Origin: Escherichia phage phiAPCEc03
Length of the DNA stretch: 64,000 nt
Reading direction: 5' to 3' (one strand)
Sequence record: NC_047754.1
The position numbers and the translations under genes are program-made. Below the pieces are notes generated by a model. That model was given only the letters and a program-made list of their open reading frames with translations, did not search any database and was not told the origin of the DNA. Below, piece by piece: positions 18,931-61,366 of the stretch. Each line of letters starts with the position of its first letter. The stretch's first letter is position 1.

Positions 18931-21776
18931 AAAAAATACTAGATAGTGCTAGAAACTACTTAAAAAATAATAGCAGAATAAAAACTGCTAGTCTAATTTC
19001 CCTAGAATTACCTGGCTCTACTGGTACTAGTACTGCTTTTATTTATTTAACTGATTATTTTAGAGATGTACTATATAATGGTATTTTGTACCAGGCCGGT
19101 AAGGTTAAGTCCATTAGCACACATAAACAAAATAGAGATTTATCTATTGGCAGTCTATCTTTTACTATTACAGGTACAGCGCAGGATGAAGTACTAAAAC
19201 TAGTGCAAAATGGTGTATCCTTCTTAGATAGAACCGTATCAATTCATCAAGCAATTATTACTGAAGATGGTTCTATTCTACCAGTAGACCCCGATACAAA
19301 TGGTCCTTTACTATATTTTAGAGGGAGGATTACTGGAGGGGGTATTAAAGATAACATTAGTACCTCTGGAGTAGGAACCTCTACAATTACCTGGAATTGT
19401 TCTAACCAATTCTATGACTTTGATAGAGTTAATGGTAGATATACTGATGACGCTTCCCATAGGGGGCTTGAAGTTGTAGCTGGACAGTTAGTACCATCTA
19501 ATGGTGCTAAAAGACCAGAGTATCAAGAAGACTACGGCTTCTTCCACTCTAATAAAAGTATCTCTATCCTAGCAAAATATCAGGTTCAAGAAGAAAGATA
19601 CAAGCTAAAATCAAAGAAAAAATTATTTGGTTTATCTAGAAGCTACAGCCTTAAAAAATACTATGAAACTGTCACTAAGGAAGTGGATATAGATTTTAAC
19701 CTTGCTGCTAAATACATACCGGTGGTTTATGGAGTTCAAAAAATTCCTGGAATACCCATTTTTGCTGATACAGAACTACACAATCCCAACATAGTTTATG
19801 TCGTATACGCCTTTGCTGAGGGGGAGATTGATGGTTTTCTTGATTTCTCCTTTGGTGATAACCCTATGATCTGCGTAGATGCTAATGACAGCTCCGCTAG
19901 AACCTGCTTTGGTACTAAAAAAATAGCAGGAGATACAATGCAGAGGATAGCATCTGGAACCTCTTCTAGTAGTCCATCCGTCCATGGTCAAGAGTATAAG
20001 TATAATGATGGAAATGGTGACATAAGGATTTGGACTTATCACGGAAAATCTGATCAAACAGCCTCTGAAGTACTAGTAGATATAGCTAAAGAACGTGGAT
20101 TCTACCTTCAGAATATGAATGGCAATGGGCCGGAGTACTGGGATGCTAGATATAAGCTACTAGATACTGCATACGCAGTGGTGCGCTTCACTATTAATGA
20201 AAATAGGACTGAGATTCCAGAAGTTAGTGCTGAAATTCAAGGTAAAAAAGTAAAAGTCTATCATTCTGATGGTAGAGTAACTGCTAATAGTACTAGTTTA
20301 AATGGTATTTGGCAAACACTTGATTACTTAACCTCTGATAGATATGGCGCTAATATTACCATTGATCAGTTCCCCCTTCAGCAATTAATACAGGAAGCAT
20401 CTATTTTAGATATTATAGATGAATCCTATCAGGTATCTTGGCAGCCATATTGGAGATACGTTGGGTGGACTGATCCACTAGCAGAAAATAGACAAATAGT
20501 ACAAATGAATACTATTCTGGATACATCTGAATCAGTATTTAAAAATGTGCAAGGTTTGTTAGAGTCCTATGGTGGGGCTATTAACAATTTATCTGGCCAG
20601 TATAGGGTTACTGTAGAAAAATACTCTAATACTCCCTTAGAGATTAATTTTCTAGATACTTACGGTGATTTGGAGCTATCAGATACTACTGGTAGAAATA
20701 AATTCAACTCAGTTCAAGCATCTATCGTAGATCCCGCCCTTAGCTGGAAAACTAATTCTATTACATTCTATAATTCCAAGTATAAGGAACAGGACAAGAA
20801 CCTAGATAAAAAATTACAACTATCTTTTGCTAATATTACTAACTACTATACTGCAAGAAGTTTTGCGGATAGAGAACTTAAGAAATCCAGATACTCAAGA
20901 ACACTTTCTTTCTCATTACCATACCAGTTCATAGGGATTGAACCCAATGATGCTATTGCATTCACGTATGACCGTTACGGGTGGAACAGAAAGTATTTCC
21001 TAGTTGATGAGGTTGAAAACTCTAGAGAGGGTAAGATAAATGTTACCTTACAGGAGTATGGAGAGGATGTATTCATCAACTCTGAGCAGGTTGATAATAG
21101 CGGTAATGATATTCCTGATATTAGTAACAATGTCCTTCCTCCTAGAGACTTTAAATATACTCCTACTCCTGGCGGTTTAGTAGGCTCTATAGGTAAAAAT
21201 GGTGAGTTATCCTGGCTTCCGAGTCTAACCAATAATGTAGTTTACTACTCTATTGTGCACTCAGGCCATGCCGAACCTTACATAATACAACAGTTAGAGA
21301 CCAATCCTAACGAACGTATGATCCAAGAAATAATTGGGGAACCAGCAGGTCTGGCTATATTTGAGATAAGGGCAGTAGATATTAATGGTAGAAGAAGTTC
21401 CCCGGTGACTCTGTCTATAGAACTTAACTCTGCTAAAAACCTTAGTGTAGTATCTAATTTTAGGGTAACTAATACGGCCTCTGGGGATGTAACTGAGTTT
21501 GTCGGCCCAGATGTAAAACTAGCTTGGGATAGGATACCGGAAGAAGATATAATAGAGAGTATATTTTATACCCTTGAAATACACGATTCACAAAATAGGA
21601 TGTTAAGAAGTGTACGTATTGAAAATCAGTATACTTATGACTATTTATTAACGTATAATAAGGCAGATTTTGCTCTCCAGAACAGCGGTGCTCTAGGTAT
21701 AAATAGAAAATTGTATTTTCGTATTAGGGCTGAGGGGAATGATGGAGAACAGTCTGTGGAGTGGGCATCCATTTAA
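18927..21776 (+). CDS. baseplate hub protein (T5 pb3-like)
   Basis: 949 aa (same as T5 pb3); canonical position after distal tail protein. Confidence 0.75.
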   Translation: MKKILDSARNYLKNNSRIKTASLISLELPGSTGTSTAFIYLTDYFRDVLYNGILYQAGKVKSISTHKQNRDLSIGSLSFTITGTAQDEVLKLVQNGVSFLDRTVSIHQAIITEDGSILPVDPDTNGPLLYFRGRITGGGIKDNISTSGVGTSTITWNCSNQFYDFDRVNGRYTDDASHRGLEVVAGQLVPSNGAKRPEYQEDYGFFHSNKSISILAKYQVQEERYKLKSKKKLFGLSRSYSLKKYYETVTKEVDIDFNLAAKYIPVVYGVQKIPGIPIFADTELHNPNIVYVVYAFAEGEIDGFLDFSFGDNPMICVDANDSSARTCFGTKKIAGDTMQRIASGTSSSSPSVHGQEYKYNDGNGDIRIWTYHGKSDQTASEVLVDIAKERGFYLQNMNGNGPEYWDARYKLLDTAYAVVRFTINENRTEIPEVSAEIQGKKVKVYHSDGRVTANSTSLNGIWQTLDYLTSDRYGANITIDQFPLQQLIQEASILDIIDESYQVSWQPYWRYVGWTDPLAENRQIVQMNTILDTSESVFKNVQGLLESYGGAINNLSGQYRVTVEKYSNTPLEINFLDTYGDLELSDTTGRNKFNSVQASIVDPALSWKTNSITFYNSKYKEQDKNLDKKLQLSFANITNYYTARSFADRELKKSRYSRTLSFSLPYQFIGIEPNDAIAFTYDRYGWNRKYFLVDEVENSREGKINVTLQEYGEDVFINSEQVDNSGNDIPDISNNVLPPRDFKYTPTPGGLVGSIGKNGELSWLPSLTNNVVYYSIVHSGHAEPYIIQQLETNPNERMIQEIIGEPAGLAIFEIRAVDINGRRSSPVTLSIELNSAKNLSVVSNFRVTNTASGDVTEFVGPDVKLAWDRIPEEDIIESIFYTLEIHDSQNRMLRSVRIENQYTYDYLLTYNKADFALQNSGALGINRKLYFRIRAEGNDGEQSVEWASI

Positions 21777-28849: not shown

Positions 28850-29059
28850 TTACTTGCTTCTACAACCTTCTATAATACCAAGATTATAGATAGTTAATAG
28901 TATTTTTAAATGCTCATTATCAGTATTAGTACAAAATTCTACAAAACCTTCAGGATCCCAGAAAGTAACATTACCTTCTTTATCTGTTTTTAGCACAAAC
29001 GTTTCTGGTTTAGTAGTTTTAATCTGATAAGCTGACATACTAGTATCAATACCTACCAT
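28850..29059 (-). CDS. hypothetical protein
   Basis: ORF track gives 28850..29113 (87 aa) overlapping dUTPase; internal Met at 29059 (MVGIDTS...) avoids overlap. Confidence 0.35.
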   Translation of the reverse strand: MVGIDTSMSAYQIKTTKPETFVLKTDKEGNVTFWDPEGFVEFCTNTDNEHLKILLTIYNLGIIEGCRSK

Positions 29060-30879: not shown

Positions 30880-32718
30880 TTATTCTAAGTAGGAAAATCC
30901 TTCTGCATCTTTTTTGACAGTAATCTTATGAGCTAATGGATGCGTATGCCCATGAGAAACAATGATAGAATTTAGACTTTCTTCCCCATTTAATAGTTCA
31001 ACGAGAGTATCAAGTCCTTTCGTATCAATAAAGCTAATTACTTCATCAAGGAATAGAAGATTAATATTAACTTTACTAATAGATGTTAACAGCATCCGAA
31101 TAGCTAACAGGGTTGCTAGATTAATTCGACTTTGCTGACCAGTAGAGCAGTTCTCCATACTGGTACGATTTCCATCATTGAAGATTACTACTTGTAATTT
31201 TGTTTCATCAAGTTCAAATCCAAGTGCGAATTTACCTCCAGTCATAATAGAAAGGTATTTATTAATTAATTCTTCGAATACTTTCACACTATGCTCTAGT
31301 TTATATCCTACTAGATTCTTCAATGCAGCAATCAGAATATCGAGATCAGCAACAGCTTCAGATACTCCATCCAGTTTGGAAGTAATCTCAGTCATTTCTG
31401 CTTCTGCTTTCTCAATCTGTTCTAACTTTGCTTTATATTTTGCATTGGCTAATTCGACATTTGCATTATGCTCTTTGGCAATTGCAACCTTAGAGCGGCC
31501 ATCAGCGATTTCCTGTTCTAATTGTCGGATTTGCACCTGTAGGATTTGCACATTGAGTTCTTCAAAAGAAGCATCACTCATTGAATTTTTGAACTCGTCT
31601 CTAGCTACCACTGCTTTATCCAAAGCATCCTTTGCTTTAGTATACGCAACGTACTCAAGTTGTTCTTTCTTCAACTGTTCTAGCTTAGCTTCAAGAGATT
31701 GCTTCTCTTTGAACAGAGGATCATATTCTATTCTAGCCATATCCATTGCTTTTTGAGCAGCAGTTGTATCCAGATGAGTACCACAAGTAGGGCATTCAGT
31801 ATTTGAAGCCTCTTGCTTAAACTTCTGATAACGTTTCTTAACTTCGCTCGCACGTGAGGTCACAATCGTTAGGTCACGCGTAACACTCGAGATCTCTTCA
31901 TTTTGGTCGGTGGGCGCGGGCAGATTTTTGAAAGGTTCGAAAGATTGTTCGGCAACTTGTACAGCTTTGTCCAAATTACGCAACTTAGTAATATTAGCCT
32001 CTTGAGACTTGGCTAATGCCGCCTTAATTTTCGATTCAGTAAGTTCTTGTGCTAATGGCTCTTCATCAAACTCCGGTACTTCTACAGGTTCCTGTAAACT
32101 CCCGAGATTATCTTTACTATTTAGAATCTTCGTAATTACAGCCATTTGGCCCTGCAGATTACTTAATGTAGCTGCCACTTCTTTACGATCAGCTTTGATA
32201 GTCTCAGACATTTCTTTGTATTGTTCTTGATTGAATAAGTTAACAAGAAAAGCCTTACGTGTTGCATCTGTTGCTTTTAGAAAATCTAGGTTGGAACCCA
32301 CTGATTGATAAATCAGTTTGGTGAATGTTTGAAAGTCACCACCCATAATCTCTTCAATCATCTTGTATGTTTGGGTTGCCGTGTGTCCACTAATATCTTC
32401 CCCGTTCTTAATCAACGTTACTTTAGCAGTTGACTTGACAACTTTATGCAGCTCATACTCATCATCGTCTTTTGAAAAGTAAGCGTGCATATCATATTCT
32501 TTCTTGGGGGCATTCCAAGAGAACAATGCATCCTTCTTGATACCTCGAGAGTTCTTGTTATAAAACAATTCCTCGATAACCGTAGCGATGGTGGATTTCC
32601 CTAGCCCATTGCCACCAATTAGTTGAGTAACTGGATTCTTATCGAAATGAATTACGATGTCCTTACCGTAAGACATAACGTTACTAAATTTTAGTGTCTT
32701 AATTGTAATCTTTGACAT
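30880..32718 (-). CDS. SbcC/Rad50-like recombination ATPase (T5 D13-like)
   Basis: Walker A GGNGLGKST near N-terminus, long coiled coil with CPTCG zinc-hook-like motif, C-terminal LLFLDEV D-loop; ATG at 32718 preferred over upstream GTG used by ORF track (32799). Confidence 0.8.
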   Translation of the reverse strand: MSKITIKTLKFSNVMSYGKDIVIHFDKNPVTQLIGGNGLGKSTIATVIEELFYNKNSRGIKKDALFSWNAPKKEYDMHAYFSKDDDEYELHKVVKSTAKVTLIKNGEDISGHTATQTYKMIEEIMGGDFQTFTKLIYQSVGSNLDFLKATDATRKAFLVNLFNQEQYKEMSETIKADRKEVAATLSNLQGQMAVITKILNSKDNLGSLQEPVEVPEFDEEPLAQELTESKIKAALAKSQEANITKLRNLDKAVQVAEQSFEPFKNLPAPTDQNEEISSVTRDLTIVTSRASEVKKRYQKFKQEASNTECPTCGTHLDTTAAQKAMDMARIEYDPLFKEKQSLEAKLEQLKKEQLEYVAYTKAKDALDKAVVARDEFKNSMSDASFEELNVQILQVQIRQLEQEIADGRSKVAIAKEHNANVELANAKYKAKLEQIEKAEAEMTEITSKLDGVSEAVADLDILIAALKNLVGYKLEHSVKVFEELINKYLSIMTGGKFALGFELDETKLQVVIFNDGNRTSMENCSTGQQSRINLATLLAIRMLLTSISKVNINLLFLDEVISFIDTKGLDTLVELLNGEESLNSIIVSHGHTHPLAHKITVKKDAEGFSYLE

Positions 32719-47417: not shown

Positions 47418-47446
47418 ATTATACAGAAAAATTTTCCTGAAAGCAA
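47418..47446 (-). promoter_or_regulatory. sigma70 promoter (-35 TTGCTT, 17 nt, -10 TATAAT)
   Basis: Minus strand TTGCTT-tcaggaaaatttttctg-TATAAT-AGATTCATAAATTTGAGAGAGGAG then ATG at 47386. Confidence 0.6.
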
Positions 47447-47454
47447 ATAAATTT

Positions 47455-47796
47455 TTACGATTCCTTGAGCAAAGAAGAAAGTTCAGCATATACTTTATCT
47501 AACTCAAACCCTATGCGAAGAGATACGTTAGTCCTCCGTTGTTTAAGTAACCACTCGGATATGTTAGGGATGCCAGCTAATCTATGTGGTACCACCCTAC
47601 ATAGCTTTTCCGAAGTATCATAAACAGGAACTTTACGTTCTTTTACTGGAAACTTCCTTGTTTCCCATTTTTTATTCTTCACTGTCATATCTCTCCGAGG
47701 GATTAAATTCACCAAACAGCTCTTTAACTCCCCTAAGGTATAGCTGATGGGCTTCTTCCGGGGTATCTCGTCTACCAAAAATATGTTGCTTTCCAT
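47455..47796 (-). CDS. hypothetical protein (true start possibly internal Met near 47690)
   Basis: 113 aa ORF overlapping 3' end of upstream HNH gene by 125 nt; basic. Confidence 0.3.
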   Translation of the reverse strand: MESNIFLVDEIPRKKPISYTLGELKSCLVNLIPRRDMTVKNKKWETRKFPVKERKVPVYDTSEKLCRVVPHRLAGIPNISEWLLKQRRTNVSLRIGFELDKVYAELSSLLKES

Positions 47797-53437: not shown

Positions 53438-54233
53438 AAGGTCTACCCTCTAAATGAGCTTCTACACGAGCAATAAAATCAGGATCACTGAAAGCATCTA
53501 CCGCACCTTTACTCCAGTAAGGGATACCGCGTTCTTCCAGCTGGTACATCTCACTACGAGTCATACCTTGATAGCCCGGTTCCGCCGCTAGGGCACTATC
53601 ATAGTAGTTAACAACCATTAGCTTGGCAGCAGTCAAATTAAGAACAGGAAATAATTCCCAGTAGAAGTTAATTACTTGGTTAGAGCAACCAATCACAACG
53701 ATCATATCTTGACTGGTAATACCATCAAAAACATTGTACATTTCTGCGTATGCAGGAGCATGCTCTCCAAAGAAGATTACATTAGGTTTAACCCATTTAT
53801 AATCATCTGGATCAATAGAATTATATCCTACATCAATAATCCGTTTATTACTACTACTGTAGCTATCCGCTACAACAACCTCTTTTAAGTATCCATGAAT
53901 GTGCAGAATGTCACTATGTGGAACTCCAGCACGCTCAATAAGGTCATCAACGTTGGTAGTCAAGTTTACTATTTGACCGGGATATTGTTTATACCATTCG
54001 CCAATACGCAAATGCGCAAGATTGGGTTCAACAGTTTTTAGCTCTTCACGACGCTTGTTGTAAAACATATGGGTTTTATGATAAAAATTACCACGAAAGG
54101 CATGAATATTACATACTTCTTCTAGATCATAATCATCCCACAGTGCTTTACCACTAGCAGTATCAGTACGGAAGGCTCGTACACCACTTTCAACACTCAA
54201 ACCTGCACCGCTAATAATAATTAATCTACGCAT
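53415..54233 (-). CDS. Sir2-family (sirtuin-like) NAD-dependent protein, zinc-ribbon-less
   Basis: 272 aa; sirtuin signature motifs GAGLSVESGVRAFR (cf. GAGISxxSGIPxFR), TTNVDDL (cf. TQNID), HIHG catalytic His, NVIFFGE, VIGCS; no CxxC...CxxC zinc module between HG and FFGE. Confidence 0.7.
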   Translation of the reverse strand: MRRLIIISGAGLSVESGVRAFRTDTASGKALWDDYDLEEVCNIHAFRGNFYHKTHMFYNKRREELKTVEPNLAHLRIGEWYKQYPGQIVNLTTNVDDLIERAGVPHSDILHIHGYLKEVVVADSYSSSNKRIIDVGYNSIDPDDYKWVKPNVIFFGEHAPAYAEMYNVFDGITSQDMIVVIGCSNQVINFYWELFPVLNLTAAKLMVVNYYDSALAAEPGYQGMTRSEMYQLEERGIPYWSKGAVDAFSDPDFIARVEAHLEGRPYVSGSKK

Positions 54234-54447: not shown

Positions 54448-54619
54448 ACAGTTTCTCCTCTAGTTCCATAACACGATTTTCATAAGAGGCACGCAACTTT
54501 TCAATTGCCAGCGCACGCACTGTAACCTCATTAGAATTAATAGCTAATTGGGCCAGATCTTCTGTTTCCATACGTCCGTTGTAAATTAAGCGATATTTAA
54601 GATGTTTTACGTTTTTCAT
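54416..54619 (-). CDS. hypothetical protein
   Basis: 67 aa ORF. Confidence 0.35.
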   Translation of the reverse strand: MKNVKHLKYRLIYNGRMETEDLAQLAINSNEVTVRALAIEKLRASYENRVMELEEKLYGILEADATR

Positions 54620-54990
54620 ACTTTTAGCTCCGCTCCAATATCCTCATAGAAGTAATCGTAGTAAACCTGCTTAATATGATGTTTAATAACAGAAGAGAAA
54701 TCCTCTGTGCCGTTAGAGGTAACATTAAATACTTGTAAGTGGTTCCAATATACAAATTCTAGAGTCTCTTTTAAGTCTTCAGGTTCTTCATATATAGGAT
54801 TATAGACAGTAATATCTAATTCTTGCTCTACGAAGTCACCTAGTAATGTAGGATATCCAATACCTCCTAGCAATGAGTAATCACCTGTAGCAGCAAAAAT
54901 AGCTTCCTGAATAGTATCTACTCCTAAGTGATAATGTCCTAACTTAGATACAACAATAAATGGTTTTAGGTCCATATACCCTCCTCTCAA
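54616..54990 (-). CDS. hypothetical protein
   Basis: 124 aa acidic ORF with SD GAGAGGAGGG and upstream promoter. Confidence 0.45.
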   Translation of the reverse strand: MRGGYMDLKPFIVVSKLGHYHLGVDTIQEAIFAATGDYSLLGGIGYPTLLGDFVEQELDITVYNPIYEEPEDLKETLEFVYWNHLQVFNVTSNGTEDFSSVIKHHIKQVYYDYFYEDIGAELKV

Positions 54991-55073: not shown

Positions 55074-56948
55074 TTATTTAGCTCGAATATCCTGATGCTT
55101 CACTCTGCCCATCACCTCGTGCTGTTTGCCGGGGTTAAATGGACGAGCACCCGGATTTCCAAGATACCCACAAACTCTACGAGTTACTTCAAGAGTTTCG
55201 GGGTCATGATTACCACAGATAGGGCACTTAAATCCATCTTCGGATGCTATTGTTTCACCTAAGAATCCACATTTACCACAAGAATCCACTGGAGTATTAA
55301 TACCGAAGTAATGAACCTTACTAGCAGCATAATTAATAACCCATTCCAGTGCATCTGGGAATCGTTTCATATCCGGTAGTTCTACATAGGAAATGCACCC
55401 ACCAGAAGCAATCGGAGTAAAGTTAGATTCATAATCAAATTTTACGTTAGGAGCAACTTTACGTTCCACATCAAGGTGATGAGAGTTAGTGTAGTATCCT
55501 TTGGACAGAATATCTTCATGCTCCGAGAAATATTCACGGTCTAGACGACAAAAACGGTCACATAGGGATTCTGATGGTGTAGCATACAGGCTATAACCTA
55601 ACTTAGTTTCTTCCTTCTTCTGATCGACTCTATCCCGCATGTACTGCAATACACGCTGAACAAACTTGATGCAGGTCTCGGACATTGTGTCTACATCTTT
55701 GCCAAACATGAACTGTAGCATTTCATGGCAACCAATATACCCTAGAGATACAGAAGCACGGTTATAGAAGTGATCGAATACATATTCATCAGGCTCCAAG
55801 CGCAGTCCAAAGGCTCCTGACATATAGAGGATGGGCGCAGCTTTAGCTTGAATGTATTTTAAGCGATCAACTCTCCACTCCAATGCTTTTAACGCTGTAT
55901 CCACACGTAGCTCAAGCAAATCAAAGAATAGATCAATATTTCCTTCAGCTTCGATAGCAATTCTAGGCAAGTTTACAGAAACAACACCTAAGTTATTACG
56001 ACCGGCAGTTTCACCATCTTCTGTAGCAGCTAGGAATGAACGGCAGCCCATAGAAACTTTATAGTCGCCAGTAACTTCCACAACCTTGTCATAGCTGATA
56101 TAATCTGGATACATACGTTCAGACGTACATTTCATAGCTAACTTCTTGATGTCATAATTAACATCTCCTGGTTTCATGTTAACGCCATCACGAAGCACAA
56201 ATACTAGTTTCGGGAAGATAGCTGTACGTTTATTGATACCTAAACCATCCATACGTACTTTTAGTATTGCTTTCTGTACTAGACGTGCCTCCCAAGAAGT
56301 TCCTAGACCAAAACCAAAGGTAATAAATGGACTCTGACCATTAGAGTTGAACATGGTATTGATTTCATATTCTAAACCCTGACAAGCGTCATAGACTTCT
56401 TTCTCAGTCATCTCCGTAGCCATTACGGATGCTTTGGCTTCATCCTTAGTCCAACGTTTTGCAAACGCATGATTTTTGTCATAGGATTTACGAACATAAG
56501 GGGCTAATACTTCATCAAGGCGGTCTACAGAAGTACCACCATACTGATGGGAGCTAACTTGAGTGATAATCTGAGCAGTAATAGCCGCCGCAGTAGTGAT
56601 AGAGTTTGGAGTGCTAATTTCAGCATTACCAACCTTCATACCATTCTTCAACATATCTTCCAGAGCTACCAGACAACAGTTAGTCATGCCTAATGCAGCA
56701 TAATCAGCATCATGGAAATGAATATCCCCAATCATATGAGCATTTCGAATCTGAATTGGCATTTCTTCTAGAATCAGATACTTACTCAATTCACCTGCAA
56801 GCATATCCCTTTGTGTAGGGAAACGTTCTGAGGGTTTATTGGCATTATTAAACAGCAGCTCTTCATCTGCTGACCCTTCGATAATCTCTTTGCAGTTTCT
56901 AATTAACGCCTGCATTTCTTTATACTTTAGTTCTTCATTGCGATTCAT
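55074..56948 (-). CDS. nrdD: anaerobic ribonucleoside-triphosphate reductase (class III, NrdD)
   Basis: 624 aa; C-terminal CPICGNHD zinc ribbon and glycyl-radical motif RVCGYLG; SD GAAGGAGAG. Confidence 0.85.
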   Translation of the reverse strand: MNRNEELKYKEMQALIRNCKEIIEGSADEELLFNNANKPSERFPTQRDMLAGELSKYLILEEMPIQIRNAHMIGDIHFHDADYAALGMTNCCLVALEDMLKNGMKVGNAEISTPNSITTAAAITAQIITQVSSHQYGGTSVDRLDEVLAPYVRKSYDKNHAFAKRWTKDEAKASVMATEMTEKEVYDACQGLEYEINTMFNSNGQSPFITFGFGLGTSWEARLVQKAILKVRMDGLGINKRTAIFPKLVFVLRDGVNMKPGDVNYDIKKLAMKCTSERMYPDYISYDKVVEVTGDYKVSMGCRSFLAATEDGETAGRNNLGVVSVNLPRIAIEAEGNIDLFFDLLELRVDTALKALEWRVDRLKYIQAKAAPILYMSGAFGLRLEPDEYVFDHFYNRASVSLGYIGCHEMLQFMFGKDVDTMSETCIKFVQRVLQYMRDRVDQKKEETKLGYSLYATPSESLCDRFCRLDREYFSEHEDILSKGYYTNSHHLDVERKVAPNVKFDYESNFTPIASGGCISYVELPDMKRFPDALEWVINYAASKVHYFGINTPVDSCGKCGFLGETIASEDGFKCPICGNHDPETLEVTRRVCGYLGNPGARPFNPGKQHEVMGRVKHQDIRAK

Positions 56949-56977
56949 TATACTCTCCTTCTCTAACTAAGACTACT

Positions 56978-57006
56978 ATTATAACTCATTCGAGGGCGGA
57001 TGTCAA
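56978..57006 (-). promoter_or_regulatory. sigma70 promoter for nrdD (-35 TTGACA, 17 nt, -10 TATAAT)
   Basis: Perfect consensus hexamers on minus strand with 17 nt spacer. Confidence 0.65.
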
Positions 57007-57057
57007 CAATATTTTACTATAAAGTTCTGTAACATGATCTGAGTCAAAAAATTTTAT

Positions 57058-57086
57058 TTGCCAATCTCTATTAAAAATTGTATAAT
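57058..57086 (+). promoter_or_regulatory. sigma70 promoter (-35 TTGCCA, 17 nt, TG-extended -10 TATAAT)
   Basis: TTGCCA-atctctattaaaaattg-TATAAT on + strand, about 215 nt upstream of phoH. Confidence 0.5.
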
Positions 57087-57198
57087 CACGCACTCGTGTA
57101 CGCGATATAAAATGATTATCTAGTATCACACATCTCACGTTAAAAGCAAGCAAATTTTTTATTTAAATGCAATATCATAGGCTTATTTAAAATTGTAG

Positions 57199-57227
57199 TT
57201 GCTTTTTACTGTATATATTGGTATAAT
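57199..57227 (+). promoter_or_regulatory. sigma70 promoter for phoH operon (-35 TTGCTT, 17 nt, -10 TATAAT)
   Basis: TTGCTT-tttactgtatatattgg-TATAAT, AT-rich upstream region. Confidence 0.6.
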
Positions 57228-57300
57228 ATATTTGTAAGTTGATAAACAAGATCTTTTTGTTGATCCTCTGTTAGCGAAGTACACTATAGGAGTGTTATTT

Positions 57301-58053
57301 ATGGGAAAAGCACGTCAAAAAAGAGAGAACCGCAATGGTTCAAGAAAGCGTGGCAACAAATATGAGAACAACGTAATTCAGGCTGATTTTTCTAATGATT
57401 ACGCTAATCCAGTTGCTAAATCCCTAGTAGGTAAAAACCGCGAGCAAAAATCATATATCAATATGATCAAGAACAACACAGTGACCGTGGGTATCGGTGA
57501 GCCGGGTACTGGTAAAACCTTTATTCCGTCCGTTCTTGCAGCTCAGGAACTCGTAGACATTCACTCAGATATTGAGCAAGTGATTCTCGTACGTCCTAAT
57601 GAACCTCTAGGTAAGTCTCTTGGTATGCTTCCTGGTGATCTAGCGGAAAAGCTAGAGCCTTGGTTGGAGCCAATAGCTGATGGTATGAAATGGGCCATCG
57701 GCGATCATGCATATAAAGGATATGTCGAACGTCAGAAAATTAAATTTTTGGCTGTCGAACATGCTCGTGGCAGAACTTTCAACAACTCCTATGTAATTGT
57801 CGATGAAGCTCAGAATATTTCCGTTGAGGCAATGATTTGTCTCCTAACTCGTGTAGGACAAGACTGCCGTTTAATTATCTGCGGAGATATAGCTCAGAAA
57901 GACATTAAAGGTGACTCAGGTCTAGCACTCCTTATGGAAGTCTATGAAAAATACGAAAATGCCCCATTCTCAATGATCGAATTGGTTGATAACGTTCGTT
58001 CTGTTGAGTCTAAAGCATTCTATGATATTTTTAAAGACATGGGGAAGGTGTAA
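57301..58053 (+). CDS. phoH: PhoH-like ATPase
   Basis: Walker A GEPGTGKT, Walker B VIVDEAQN; ATG at 57301 with TAGGAG SD preferred over GTG at 57292 used by ORF track. Confidence 0.85.
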   Translation: MGKARQKRENRNGSRKRGNKYENNVIQADFSNDYANPVAKSLVGKNREQKSYINMIKNNTVTVGIGEPGTGKTFIPSVLAAQELVDIHSDIEQVILVRPNEPLGKSLGMLPGDLAEKLEPWLEPIADGMKWAIGDHAYKGYVERQKIKFLAVEHARGRTFNNSYVIVDEAQNISVEAMICLLTRVGQDCRLIICGDIAQKDIKGDSGLALLMEVYEKYENAPFSMIELVDNVRSVESKAFYDIFKDMGKV

Positions 58054-60850: not shown

Positions 60851-61366
60851 TTGATAACACAAGATGAATTAAAAAGGATTCTGGAGTATAATCCAGATGA
60901 AGGAACATTTACTTGGTTAAATAACCAAGAAGTACACAATAAAGTAAGAGGACTACCTGCTGGTTGTTTAAAACCACACTCAGTAGACCCTAACCGAAAA
61001 GACTTAGTGATACAAATCAAGGGTAAGAAGTACCCTGCACAAAATATTGCTTTCCTGTACATGACAGGAAACTTACCTAAAGTTATGGTTGACCATATAG
61101 ATGGAGATTCACTAAACTATAAGTGGACTAACCTAAGAGAAGCAGACTGGCAGTTAAATAGTCAAAATAGAAAAACCAGTAAAAACAATATATTGGGTAC
61201 TAAGAATATTCGGAAGAAAGGGTCTGGATTTCAAGTTAGAAAATCTATTAACGGAAAAGAATACGTGAAAACTCTTCCAACTCTAGAAGAGGCAATAGAG
61301 TATCGAGATTCTTTAATCCTCTCTATAACCAAAGATCCAACACTACTTAGAAACACAGATAAATAG
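60851..61366 (+). CDS. HNH-AP2 homing endonuclease inserted between nrdA and nrdB
   Basis: 171 aa; HNH core VDHIDGDSLNYKWTNLREADWQLNSQN, AP2-like SGFQVRKSINGKEYVKTLPTLEEAIEYRD; N-terminus MITQDELKRILEYNPDEGTF parallels the 40340 ORF. Confidence 0.75.
   Translation: MITQDELKRILEYNPDEGTFTWLNNQEVHNKVRGLPAGCLKPHSVDPNRKDLVIQIKGKKYPAQNIAFLYMTGNLPKVMVDHIDGDSLNYKWTNLREADWQLNSQNRKTSKNNILGTKNIRKKGSGFQVRKSINGKEYVKTLPTLEEAIEYRDSLILSITKDPTLLRNTDK

Follow-up and report, generated by a model that had tools for sequence, protein, structure and literature searches.

A probable divergence point of early transcription, with three predicted sigma-70 promoters, between nrdD and phoH of a T5-like phage

How is transcription started in the short stretch from which the nrdD and phoH genes of a T5-like phage are read in opposite directions, and do the other sequence elements found there take part in it? 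We addressed this question in a 64-kb stretch of phage DNA (64,000 nucleotides, hereafter the window) containing open reading frames for both genes. On the minus strand, nrdD (55074..56948) encodes an anaerobic class III ribonucleotide reductase of 624 aa (Pfam NRDD E=4e-172, Gly_radical E=9e-23), and on the plus strand, phoH (57301..58053) encodes a PhoH-like ATPase of 250 aa (Pfam PhoH E=3e-61), has the same start as T5 phoH and is the first gene of a rightward phoH-nrdA operon. The region under study, 56949-57300, is the whole intergenic stretch between the nrdD start at 56948 and the phoH ATG at 57301. The original prediction had described it as an AT-rich stretch of about 350 bp, and we find 352 bp with a GC content of 28.7%, compared with 39.2% across the window. 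It had further proposed a perfect-consensus leftward promoter for nrdD, two rightward promoters for phoH, and, between these two, an inverted repeat that might be an operator or a small-RNA terminator. We give a probability of roughly 0.8 to the reading that the region is the early-transcription divergence point of a T5-like phage, with three sigma-70 promoters, and that the repeat is incidental.

A query of 451 bp around the region retrieved 438 phage records, all of them T5-like (Demerecviridae), including Salmonella phage PK7 with 100% identity to the region and several Escherichia and Salmonella phages that are more than 99% identical. Beyond T5-like genomes, a scan of viral contigs with 15-mers found only contigs of unrelated appearance, and a metagenome scan for distant relatives returned only generic PhoH homologues with 30-40% identity. 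For comparison across relatives, the orthologous region was gathered from 37 sequences, comprising the window, T5, 28 IMG/VR genomes (Pectobacterium phage My1 is counted here), five GenBank records (Seafire, phiR2-01, SP3, EH7 and TrudiGerster), one Klebsiella phage and Providencia phage PR1. Conservation is expressed below as the major-allele frequency, which for the leftward promoter refers to the 24 unique variants among the 37 sequences.

The promoters lie far beyond chance, whereas the inverted repeat stands at chance level. With at most one mismatch allowed, the sigma-70 consensus was observed six times in the 64 kb against 1.10 expected, a count reached in 0 of 100 shuffles, and two of these six sites fall in the 352-bp intergenic stretch. 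The signature AAAWTTnnnTTGC-N19-TATAAT, which both rightward promoters carry, is present in 10 copies in the window compared with 0.01 expected. Five copies lie to the left of 57000, all on the minus strand, and five to the right, all on the plus strand, and this switch at 57000 therefore marks the region as the divergence point of early transcription units. Because a lenient generic promoter scan of the surrounding 3.3 kb gave no excess over shuffles (9 versus 9.5), the case for promoters rests on the high-scoring sites and on their conservation. On these grounds, the reading of the region as a set of putative divergent promoters is supported.

The leftward promoter (57006..56978, minus strand) is the sole perfect sigma-70 consensus in the 64 kb, with a -35 TTGACA at 57006..57001, a spacer of 17 nt and a -10 TATAAT at 56983..56978 (12/12 matches), just as had been proposed for nrdD. 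Its hexamers are nearly fixed, with major-allele frequencies of 0.98 (-35) and 0.99 (-10), while spacer and flanks reach only 0.58 and 0.68, and they are kept even where a homing-endonuclease gene stands between promoter and nrdD and the spacer is wholly different. Fixed hexamers with diverging spacers are the pattern expected of working promoters. Transcription from this putative promoter is predicted to start at about 56971-56973 and would run into nrdD and the genes behind it, with a leader of about 22 nt that would carry a strong Shine-Dalgarno sequence, AAGGAGAG (56953..56960, minus strand), read from the sequence and kept in relatives. A further leftward candidate at 57143..57115 (TTAACG-17-GATAAT, 9/12) was discarded, as alignments show its -35 to be lost in relatives.

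The two rightward promoters predicted for phoH are likewise both present with conserved hexamers. The proximal one (57190..57232, plus strand) begins with an A/T block and has a -35 TTGCTT at 57199-57204, a 17-nt spacer, a -10 TATAAT at 57222-57227 (9/12, extended by a TGn at 57219-57221 whose TG is at 57219-57220) and an ATATT discriminator at 57228-57232, giving a predicted start at about 57234-57236. Major-allele frequencies that include other genera are 0.92 for its -35 and 0.97 for its -10, compared with 0.78 for the spacer, and in every genus examined we found this promoter as TTGCTT, TTGCAA or TTGCCA, a 17-nt spacer, and TATAAT, TATACT or TAGAAT. The distal one (57049..57086, plus strand) opens with the A/T block AAATTTTAT and combines a -35 TTGCCA at 57058-57063 with a 17-nt spacer and a -10 TATAAT at 57081-57086 (11/12), with a start predicted at about 57092-57094.

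The distal promoter follows this pattern too. Among the 37 relatives it occurs with four unrelated spacers that all end in TATAAT, namely TTGCCA-17, TTGCTA-17, TTGACA-18 and TTGCTT-17. The Klebsiella and Pectobacterium phages have the hexamer TTATTC at the 17-bp position, so their distal -10 is either poor or shifted. SP3-like phages lack the distal promoter together with the adjoining GC-rich island and the dyad described below, and the module is thus dispensable. In Shigella phage SSP1 an HNH gene lies directly behind a distal-type promoter, TTGACA-17-TAAGAT, which is the only visible promoter of that gene.

All three promoters were already known as predictions. The T5 GenBank record AY543070 carries three promoter features in the spacer between phoH (T5.098) and nrdD (T5.099), and extraction of these features showed them to be the orthologues of the proximal (53638..53712), distal (53776..53850) and leftward (53884..53958) promoters; the original prediction thus rediscovered an existing predicted annotation. 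A second T5 record, AY587007, has a feature for the proximal one alone, named putative early promoter T5P30. T5 and the window agree in the order and strands of the three, the T5 hexamers being TTGACA-17-TATAAT (leftward), TTGCTA-17-TATAAT (distal) and TTGCTT-17-TGgTATAAT (proximal), but 18 bp are inserted upstream of the distal promoter in T5. Like ours, the T5 promoters are predicted, and a literature search on T5-like phages found no mapped start sites or expression data for the nrdD/phoH locus. Our finding mostly repeats the T5 annotation and adds confirmation by comparison across relatives; only the atypical distal discriminator, an FNR-like dyad and an invariant block would be worth an experiment.

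The classic strong T5 promoters are reportedly those of Gentz and Bujard. Host sigma-70 RNA polymerase would read the region without a phage sigma factor, and the three promoters would be active in vivo. The two tandem rightward promoters would be of the phage's own type (upstream A/T block, TTGCnn -35, 17-bp spacer and TATAAT -10) and would drive phoH and downstream nucleotide-synthesis genes, which in the window include nrdA. Of the pair, the proximal promoter would be a canonical T5 early promoter by virtue of its extended -10 and ATATT discriminator. When compared to the T5 early promoter class (PMC7472727), it shows all of the features, with A/T block, TTGCTn -35, TATAAT and ATATT, and the distal promoter agrees with the class in upstream block, -35 type, spacing and -10 but has CACGCAC in place of ATATT. 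The leftward promoter differs from the class in having TTGACA and the discriminator AGTAGTC, again without ATATT. All known T5 early promoters have ATATT in the discriminator (Klimuk et al., PMC7472727).

The distal promoter is the atypical member of the rightward pair. Its discriminator contains G or C at five of seven positions, compared with 0-3 of seven (mostly 0-2) in the other T5-type promoters of the window, and it belongs to a GC-rich island, CACGCACTCGTGTACGCGA (57087..57105, plus strand; 19 bp, 63% GC), that makes up the discriminator and the initial transcribed region and holds the inverted repeat. The 64 kb contain just one other island of this kind with flanking DNA of 25% GC or less. 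In T5, TrudiGerster, phiR2-01 and the Klebsiella, Providencia and Pectobacterium phages the bases after the distal -10 are likewise GC-rich, and their sequence differs from one to the next; the island of T5 reads CCTGCGCCTATGTACGCGG, without the CACG/CGTG repeat. Sharing the upstream half of the proximal promoter, the distal one would begin transcription inside this island, and for that reason it probably differs in open-complex stability or promoter escape. The tandem pair may accordingly differ in kinetics or in temporal class. GC-rich discriminators are typical of rrnB P1 and other stringently controlled promoters. The distal promoter is like these in being GC-rich between the -10 and the start, which is a resemblance only, but promoters of the rrnB P1 type have a suboptimal core, whereas -35, -10 and spacer are near consensus here.

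In T5, gpT5.026, a phage protein that binds RNA polymerase, is reported to weaken the contacts with the discriminator and to shift the balance between early and late transcription (Klimuk et al., PMC7472727). The response of the distal promoter to the early-to-late switch of the phage may possibly differ as well, and two rightward promoters that differ only in their discriminator offer a natural test of the proposal that the discriminator sets temporal class in T5 (PMC7472727). A nick site was also considered for the island and rejected: single-strand interruptions in T5 have the consensus R/GCGCRGG on the nicked strand (PMC3517423; features of AY543070), the window's island is without the motif, and the T5 island matches the consensus, with GGCGCAGG, only on the strand that has no nicks.

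Upstream of the nrdD promoter we noted a candidate FNR-like dyad, ATGATctgaGTCAA (57034..57047), which reads ATGAT...GTCAA and agrees with TTGAT-N4-ATCAA at 8/10 positions. This dyad could be a site of class I type for FNR, the oxygen sensor of the host, that boosts the oxygen-sensitive NrdD in anaerobic hosts, a tentative reading that we consider possible but somewhat improbable. In the window alone it is not significant, since a score of 8/10 or better is reached at 57 sites in the 64 kb, and the T5 copy, TTGATctgtGCTAA, is weaker still at 7/10. Some relatives have better copies. The dyad is perfect (10/10) in genomes L008 and L014, where the forms at the same aligned position are TTGATttttATCAA and TTGATcttaATCAA, and scores 9/10 in six further unique variants (L002/L029, L005, L010, L027, L153 and L155); the whole window has no 10/10 site and six 9/10 sites. 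Eight unique variant classes have the whole TTGA-N6-TCAA core (8/8), and conservation of the half-sites is 0.93 and 0.80, higher than in the central N4 (0.72) and the flanks (0.54-0.70). All 17 unique variants with the dyad keep it exactly 27 nt from the leftward -35, whereas its spacing to the distal rightward -35 varies between about 10 and 28 nt, and we therefore assign the dyad to the nrdD promoter. Against a function, the site is absent from the Providencia, Pectobacterium and SP3-like phages, and a promoter of perfect consensus hardly needs an activator.

Class I activators are centred at -61.5/-71.5. If the leftward start is 7 nt after the -10, the dyad would be centred at about -69.5, which is 2 bp off the canonical position unless transcription starts further downstream. 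A parallel is the host nrdD locus: the E. coli nrdD upstream region has two such boxes, TTGAGctacATCAA and TTGATgcaaAGCAC, so that host and phage are alike in having a TTGA-N6-TCAA dyad upstream of nrdD. We take the two E. coli sites to be at about -33.5 and -64.5, in agreement with the sequence upstream of the gene. They lie near or overlap a weak core promoter and are accompanied by NrdR boxes, whereas in the phage a single dyad near -69.5 lies upstream of a promoter of perfect consensus and NrdR boxes are absent. For the latter (acaCwAtATaTwGtgt, usually two), the best match in the region was 11/16, a score reached or exceeded by 74 sites in the window. To our knowledge, no host transcription factor acts as a regulator of T5 early genes, so a phage nrdD promoter with a working FNR site would clearly show a virulent phage sensing the oxygen state of its host. 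The class III reductase genes of the host are under FNR control according to a review (PMC4009431), which cites Boston and Atlung 2003 and Roca et al. 2008 for the FNR-activated E. coli nrdDG promoter.

Between the island and the proximal promoter lies a near-invariant non-coding block of 19 bp, AAATGATTATCTAGTATCA (57110..57128), which occurs once in the window. Of 33 loci compared, 25 have an exact copy of its core, ATGATTATCTAGTA; T5-type phages have CTAATA instead. The block also survives in Pectobacterium phage My1, amid flanks that cannot be aligned. We detected no conserved ORF, no Rfam match and no fold signal in it. A small ORF or leader peptide over the block was dismissed because neither T5 nor L014, L016 or L027 keeps one of 30 aa or more, as was an ATG-ATT-ATC-TAG mini-ORF, which is without a Shine-Dalgarno sequence and is destroyed in SSP1. 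Inspection of block and island by eye against consensus sequences gave no convincing site for Fur, DnaA, IHF, FIS, TrpR or sigma-28 and no convincing Pho-box.

What could hold this block constant? In relatives, free-standing homing endonuclease genes have entered this locus repeatedly, with genes for T5orf172/MUG113-type zinc-finger nucleases or HNH_3(+AP2) proteins next to nrdD. The stretch at about 57087-57113, made up of the island and the left edge of the block, may be the recognition or cleavage site of such an endonuclease, the constrained sequence being targeted and the block therefore conserved; we consider this doubtful. Three separate lineages (the SP3 group, SSP1 and My1) lose homology at 57109-57113, the SSP1 insertion sits between the distal promoter and the block, and SP3-like phages with an endonuclease gene lack exactly 57007-57109. 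My1 shares about 26 identical bases with the SP3 group within a region that otherwise cannot be aligned. From the insertion hot spot and the homology breaks it follows that the junction of island and block may be an endonuclease target. However, island and distal promoter are intact in EH7-type endonuclease carriers (L005, L010 and L014), and the block is identical in genomes with and without an endonuclease gene, so the block alone cannot determine immunity.

A wider reading would have the region wire the phage's two ribonucleotide reductase systems to host physiology and to phage timing by way of the dyad, the distal promoter and the block, and we regard it as rather unlikely. If true, the dyad would bring the anaerobic reductase under oxygen-dependent control, and the distal promoter would form another kinetic or temporal class, for example by escaping the early shut-off linked to gpT5.026 or by answering stringent-type signals. 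The invariant block of 19-26 bp would then be a protein site that also serves as a landing mark for homing endonucleases.

We return to the preferred reading, in which the region is a divergence point with three promoters, and to its view of the inverted repeat as incidental. The repeat, CACGCACTCGTG (CACG-CACT-CGTG; 57087-57098), is present between the rightward promoters as predicted, adjoining the distal -10, and consists of a 4-bp stem, CACG/CGTG, and a 4-nt loop. Inverted repeats with 4-bp stems number 17 in the region compared with 15.3 +/- 4.8 in shuffles; a GC-rich one arises in 12% of region shuffles, and shuffling the GC island alone produces a 4-bp repeat in 17%. The predicted fold has -4.3 kcal/mol and z = -0.10. 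Conservation in related phages, named in the original prediction as a check on the repeat, speaks against a function: the symmetry is lost in T5 (CCTGCGCCTATG), TrudiGerster (CCCGCGCCCATG) and phiR2-01 (CACCCGCACATG) and also in the L014 type. As an operator, the repeat is a chance-level dyad that is neither conserved among relatives nor repeated in the window. As an intrinsic terminator, its stem has 4 bp where at least 5 bp are needed and is followed by TACGCGATAT, with no T-run. From the predicted start, the repeat spans about -6 to +6 of the distal promoter; because it straddles that start, most of its 5' arm would be outside the RNA, and because it overlaps the start site it cannot terminate its own transcript. 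Neither function proposed for the repeat is supported, and we consider it an incidental part of the GC island.

An operator could instead be formed by the island as a whole, repeat included, with a phage or host repressor bound across the distal start. The island would cover about -6 to +13 of the distal promoter, which is a classical operator position, it is a rare compositional feature, and a GC-rich stretch occupies the same place in several genera. We nevertheless hold this to be very unlikely. The dyad in it has just 4+4 bp, which is at chance level, and is destroyed in the types named above, the sequence of the island varies by genus, and no motif is repeated (GTACGCG and CGCGRTATAA have one copy each in the window). 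Moreover, the island is missing in SP3-like phages, and in SSP1 an inserted gene takes its place.

It is still less probable that the region is also a replication origin, at which transcription provides the primer or the D2 (UL9-like) helicase binds. T5 has several internal origins, none of them mapped, and its D2 is similar to the origin-binding helicases of herpesviruses (PMC3632103). The region would offer an AT-rich stretch between strong divergent promoters, and the cumulative GC skew is lowest at about 57000. However, the skew switches where the coding strand does, so the two are confounded and the minimum is uninformative, and there are no iterons or repeated motifs, those of block and island being single copy.

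That the distal promoter makes a short non-coding RNA or attenuated leader, ended before the proximal promoter by the repeat or a later hairpin, is close to negligible: the 112 nt between distal -10 and proximal -35 do hold the conserved block and a T-run (57155-57160), but the plus strand has no terminator-like site at 57087-57199 between the rightward promoters, no stem precedes the T-run, folds score z = +0.11 (57093-57172), z = +0.83 (57120-57172) and z = +0.34 (whole leader), and an Rfam search of the intergenic region gave no match.

Some minor features of the locus concern the phoH side. The nearest Rfam family was DnaX, with a hit below threshold (E = 0.27) across the phoH start, and a tRNA search of the 64-kb window found none. 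The 5' leader of phoH (57245..57295, plus strand) could form two small hairpins, with a fold z of about 0. The first pairs GATC with GATC (57250-57253 with 57262-57265) or, alternatively, AACAA with TTGTT, and the second pairs ACACU with AGUGU (57281-57295), overlapping the Shine-Dalgarno sequence AGGAG at 57288-57292. Klebsiella, Providencia and Pectobacterium phages also have phoH-leader hairpins, at the same place and with other sequences.

Free-standing homing endonuclease genes recur in the nrdD-phoH spacer, a hot spot for them among the relatives compared; we found them in phages of the SP3 type (L004, L013, L025 and others), phages of the EH7 type (L005, L010 and L014), phiR2-01 (L003), SSP1 (L009) and two further relatives (L008 and L018). 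These genes encode either T5orf172/MUG113 proteins with zinc fingers or HNH_3 proteins with or without an AP2 domain, and each is preceded by a consensus promoter, whether its own or captured. The SP3-type phages have lost the FNR-like candidate dyad, the distal phoH promoter and the GC island that follows its -10 element. In three lineages, the homology breakpoint falls at the left edge of a near-invariant non-coding block, AAATGATTATCTAGTATCA, located 5' of the proximal phoH promoter (57110-57128 in the window). This block recurs in L004, L009 and others, and is retained even in Pectobacterium phage My1 (L030, 2313-2338), where the remainder of the spacer is unalignable. The ribonucleotide reductase cluster of phiAPCEc03 itself contains a further homing endonuclease gene, a plus-strand HNH_3 ORF of 171 aa immediately 3' of nrdA (60851-61366). 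The T5 cluster has hegH in the interval separating nrdA from nrdB.

Some GenBank genomes (GEC_vB_N7, vB_SenS_SB13 and vB_SenS-3; records H11, H19 and H26) have one or two 'hypothetical proteins' annotated inside the spacer. Because no matching spacer ORF is conserved across the relatives, these are probably over-calls. Closer to phoH, the leader (57245-57295) contains a small hairpin about 35 nt 5' of the start codon (stem GATC/GATC) that is found again in other genera with a differing sequence, namely in a Klebsiella phage (L153, 2447-2462, GGTC/GACC), Providencia phage PR1 (L154, 2381-2398, GAATAT/ATATTC) and My1 (L030, 2455-2477, AAAGCATA/TATGCTTT). Another small stem in this leader shares bases with the Shine-Dalgarno sequence. 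Taken individually, none of these phoH-leader folds is significant (z from about 0 to -1.35).

Just within the phoH coding start, a terminator-like hairpin followed by a T-run (GAACCATTGCGGTTC, 57327-57341, minus strand) is probably a chance occurrence, given that a scan of 3.3 kb returned three such sites versus 2.1 expected. Besides the spacer island (57087-57105), the window contains only one other GC-rich island in such AT-rich surroundings, CCTCTGTGCCGTTAGAGG at 54702-54719, within a 124-aa ORF (54616..54990). It forms a hairpin with a 5-bp stem, with a T-rich run after it when read on the minus strand, and may represent an internal terminator-like element. Elsewhere in the window, two minus-strand promoters, at 47418-47455 and 1560-1597, share the discriminator AGATTCAT; the former (AAAATTTATTTGCTTTCAGGAAAATTTTTCTGTATAAT) has what we take to be the classic T5 N25 promoter sequence used in expression vectors.

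Cumulative GC skew across the window reaches its maximum near 29000 and its minimum near 57000, at the nrdD/phoH spacer, but as this minimum coincides with the switch in coding strand, the skew is unusable for calling a replication origin. Three copies of GCGCRGG, the core motif of T5 nick sites, are present on the plus strand of the window (at 19179, 31914 and 54338) and none on its minus strand, against about 1.8 expected per strand. The plus strand is the equivalent of the nicked strand of T5, and by colinearity the copy at 31914 corresponds to the major T5 nick at 64.8%. In T5, the spacer island itself bears this motif, on the strand that is not nicked.
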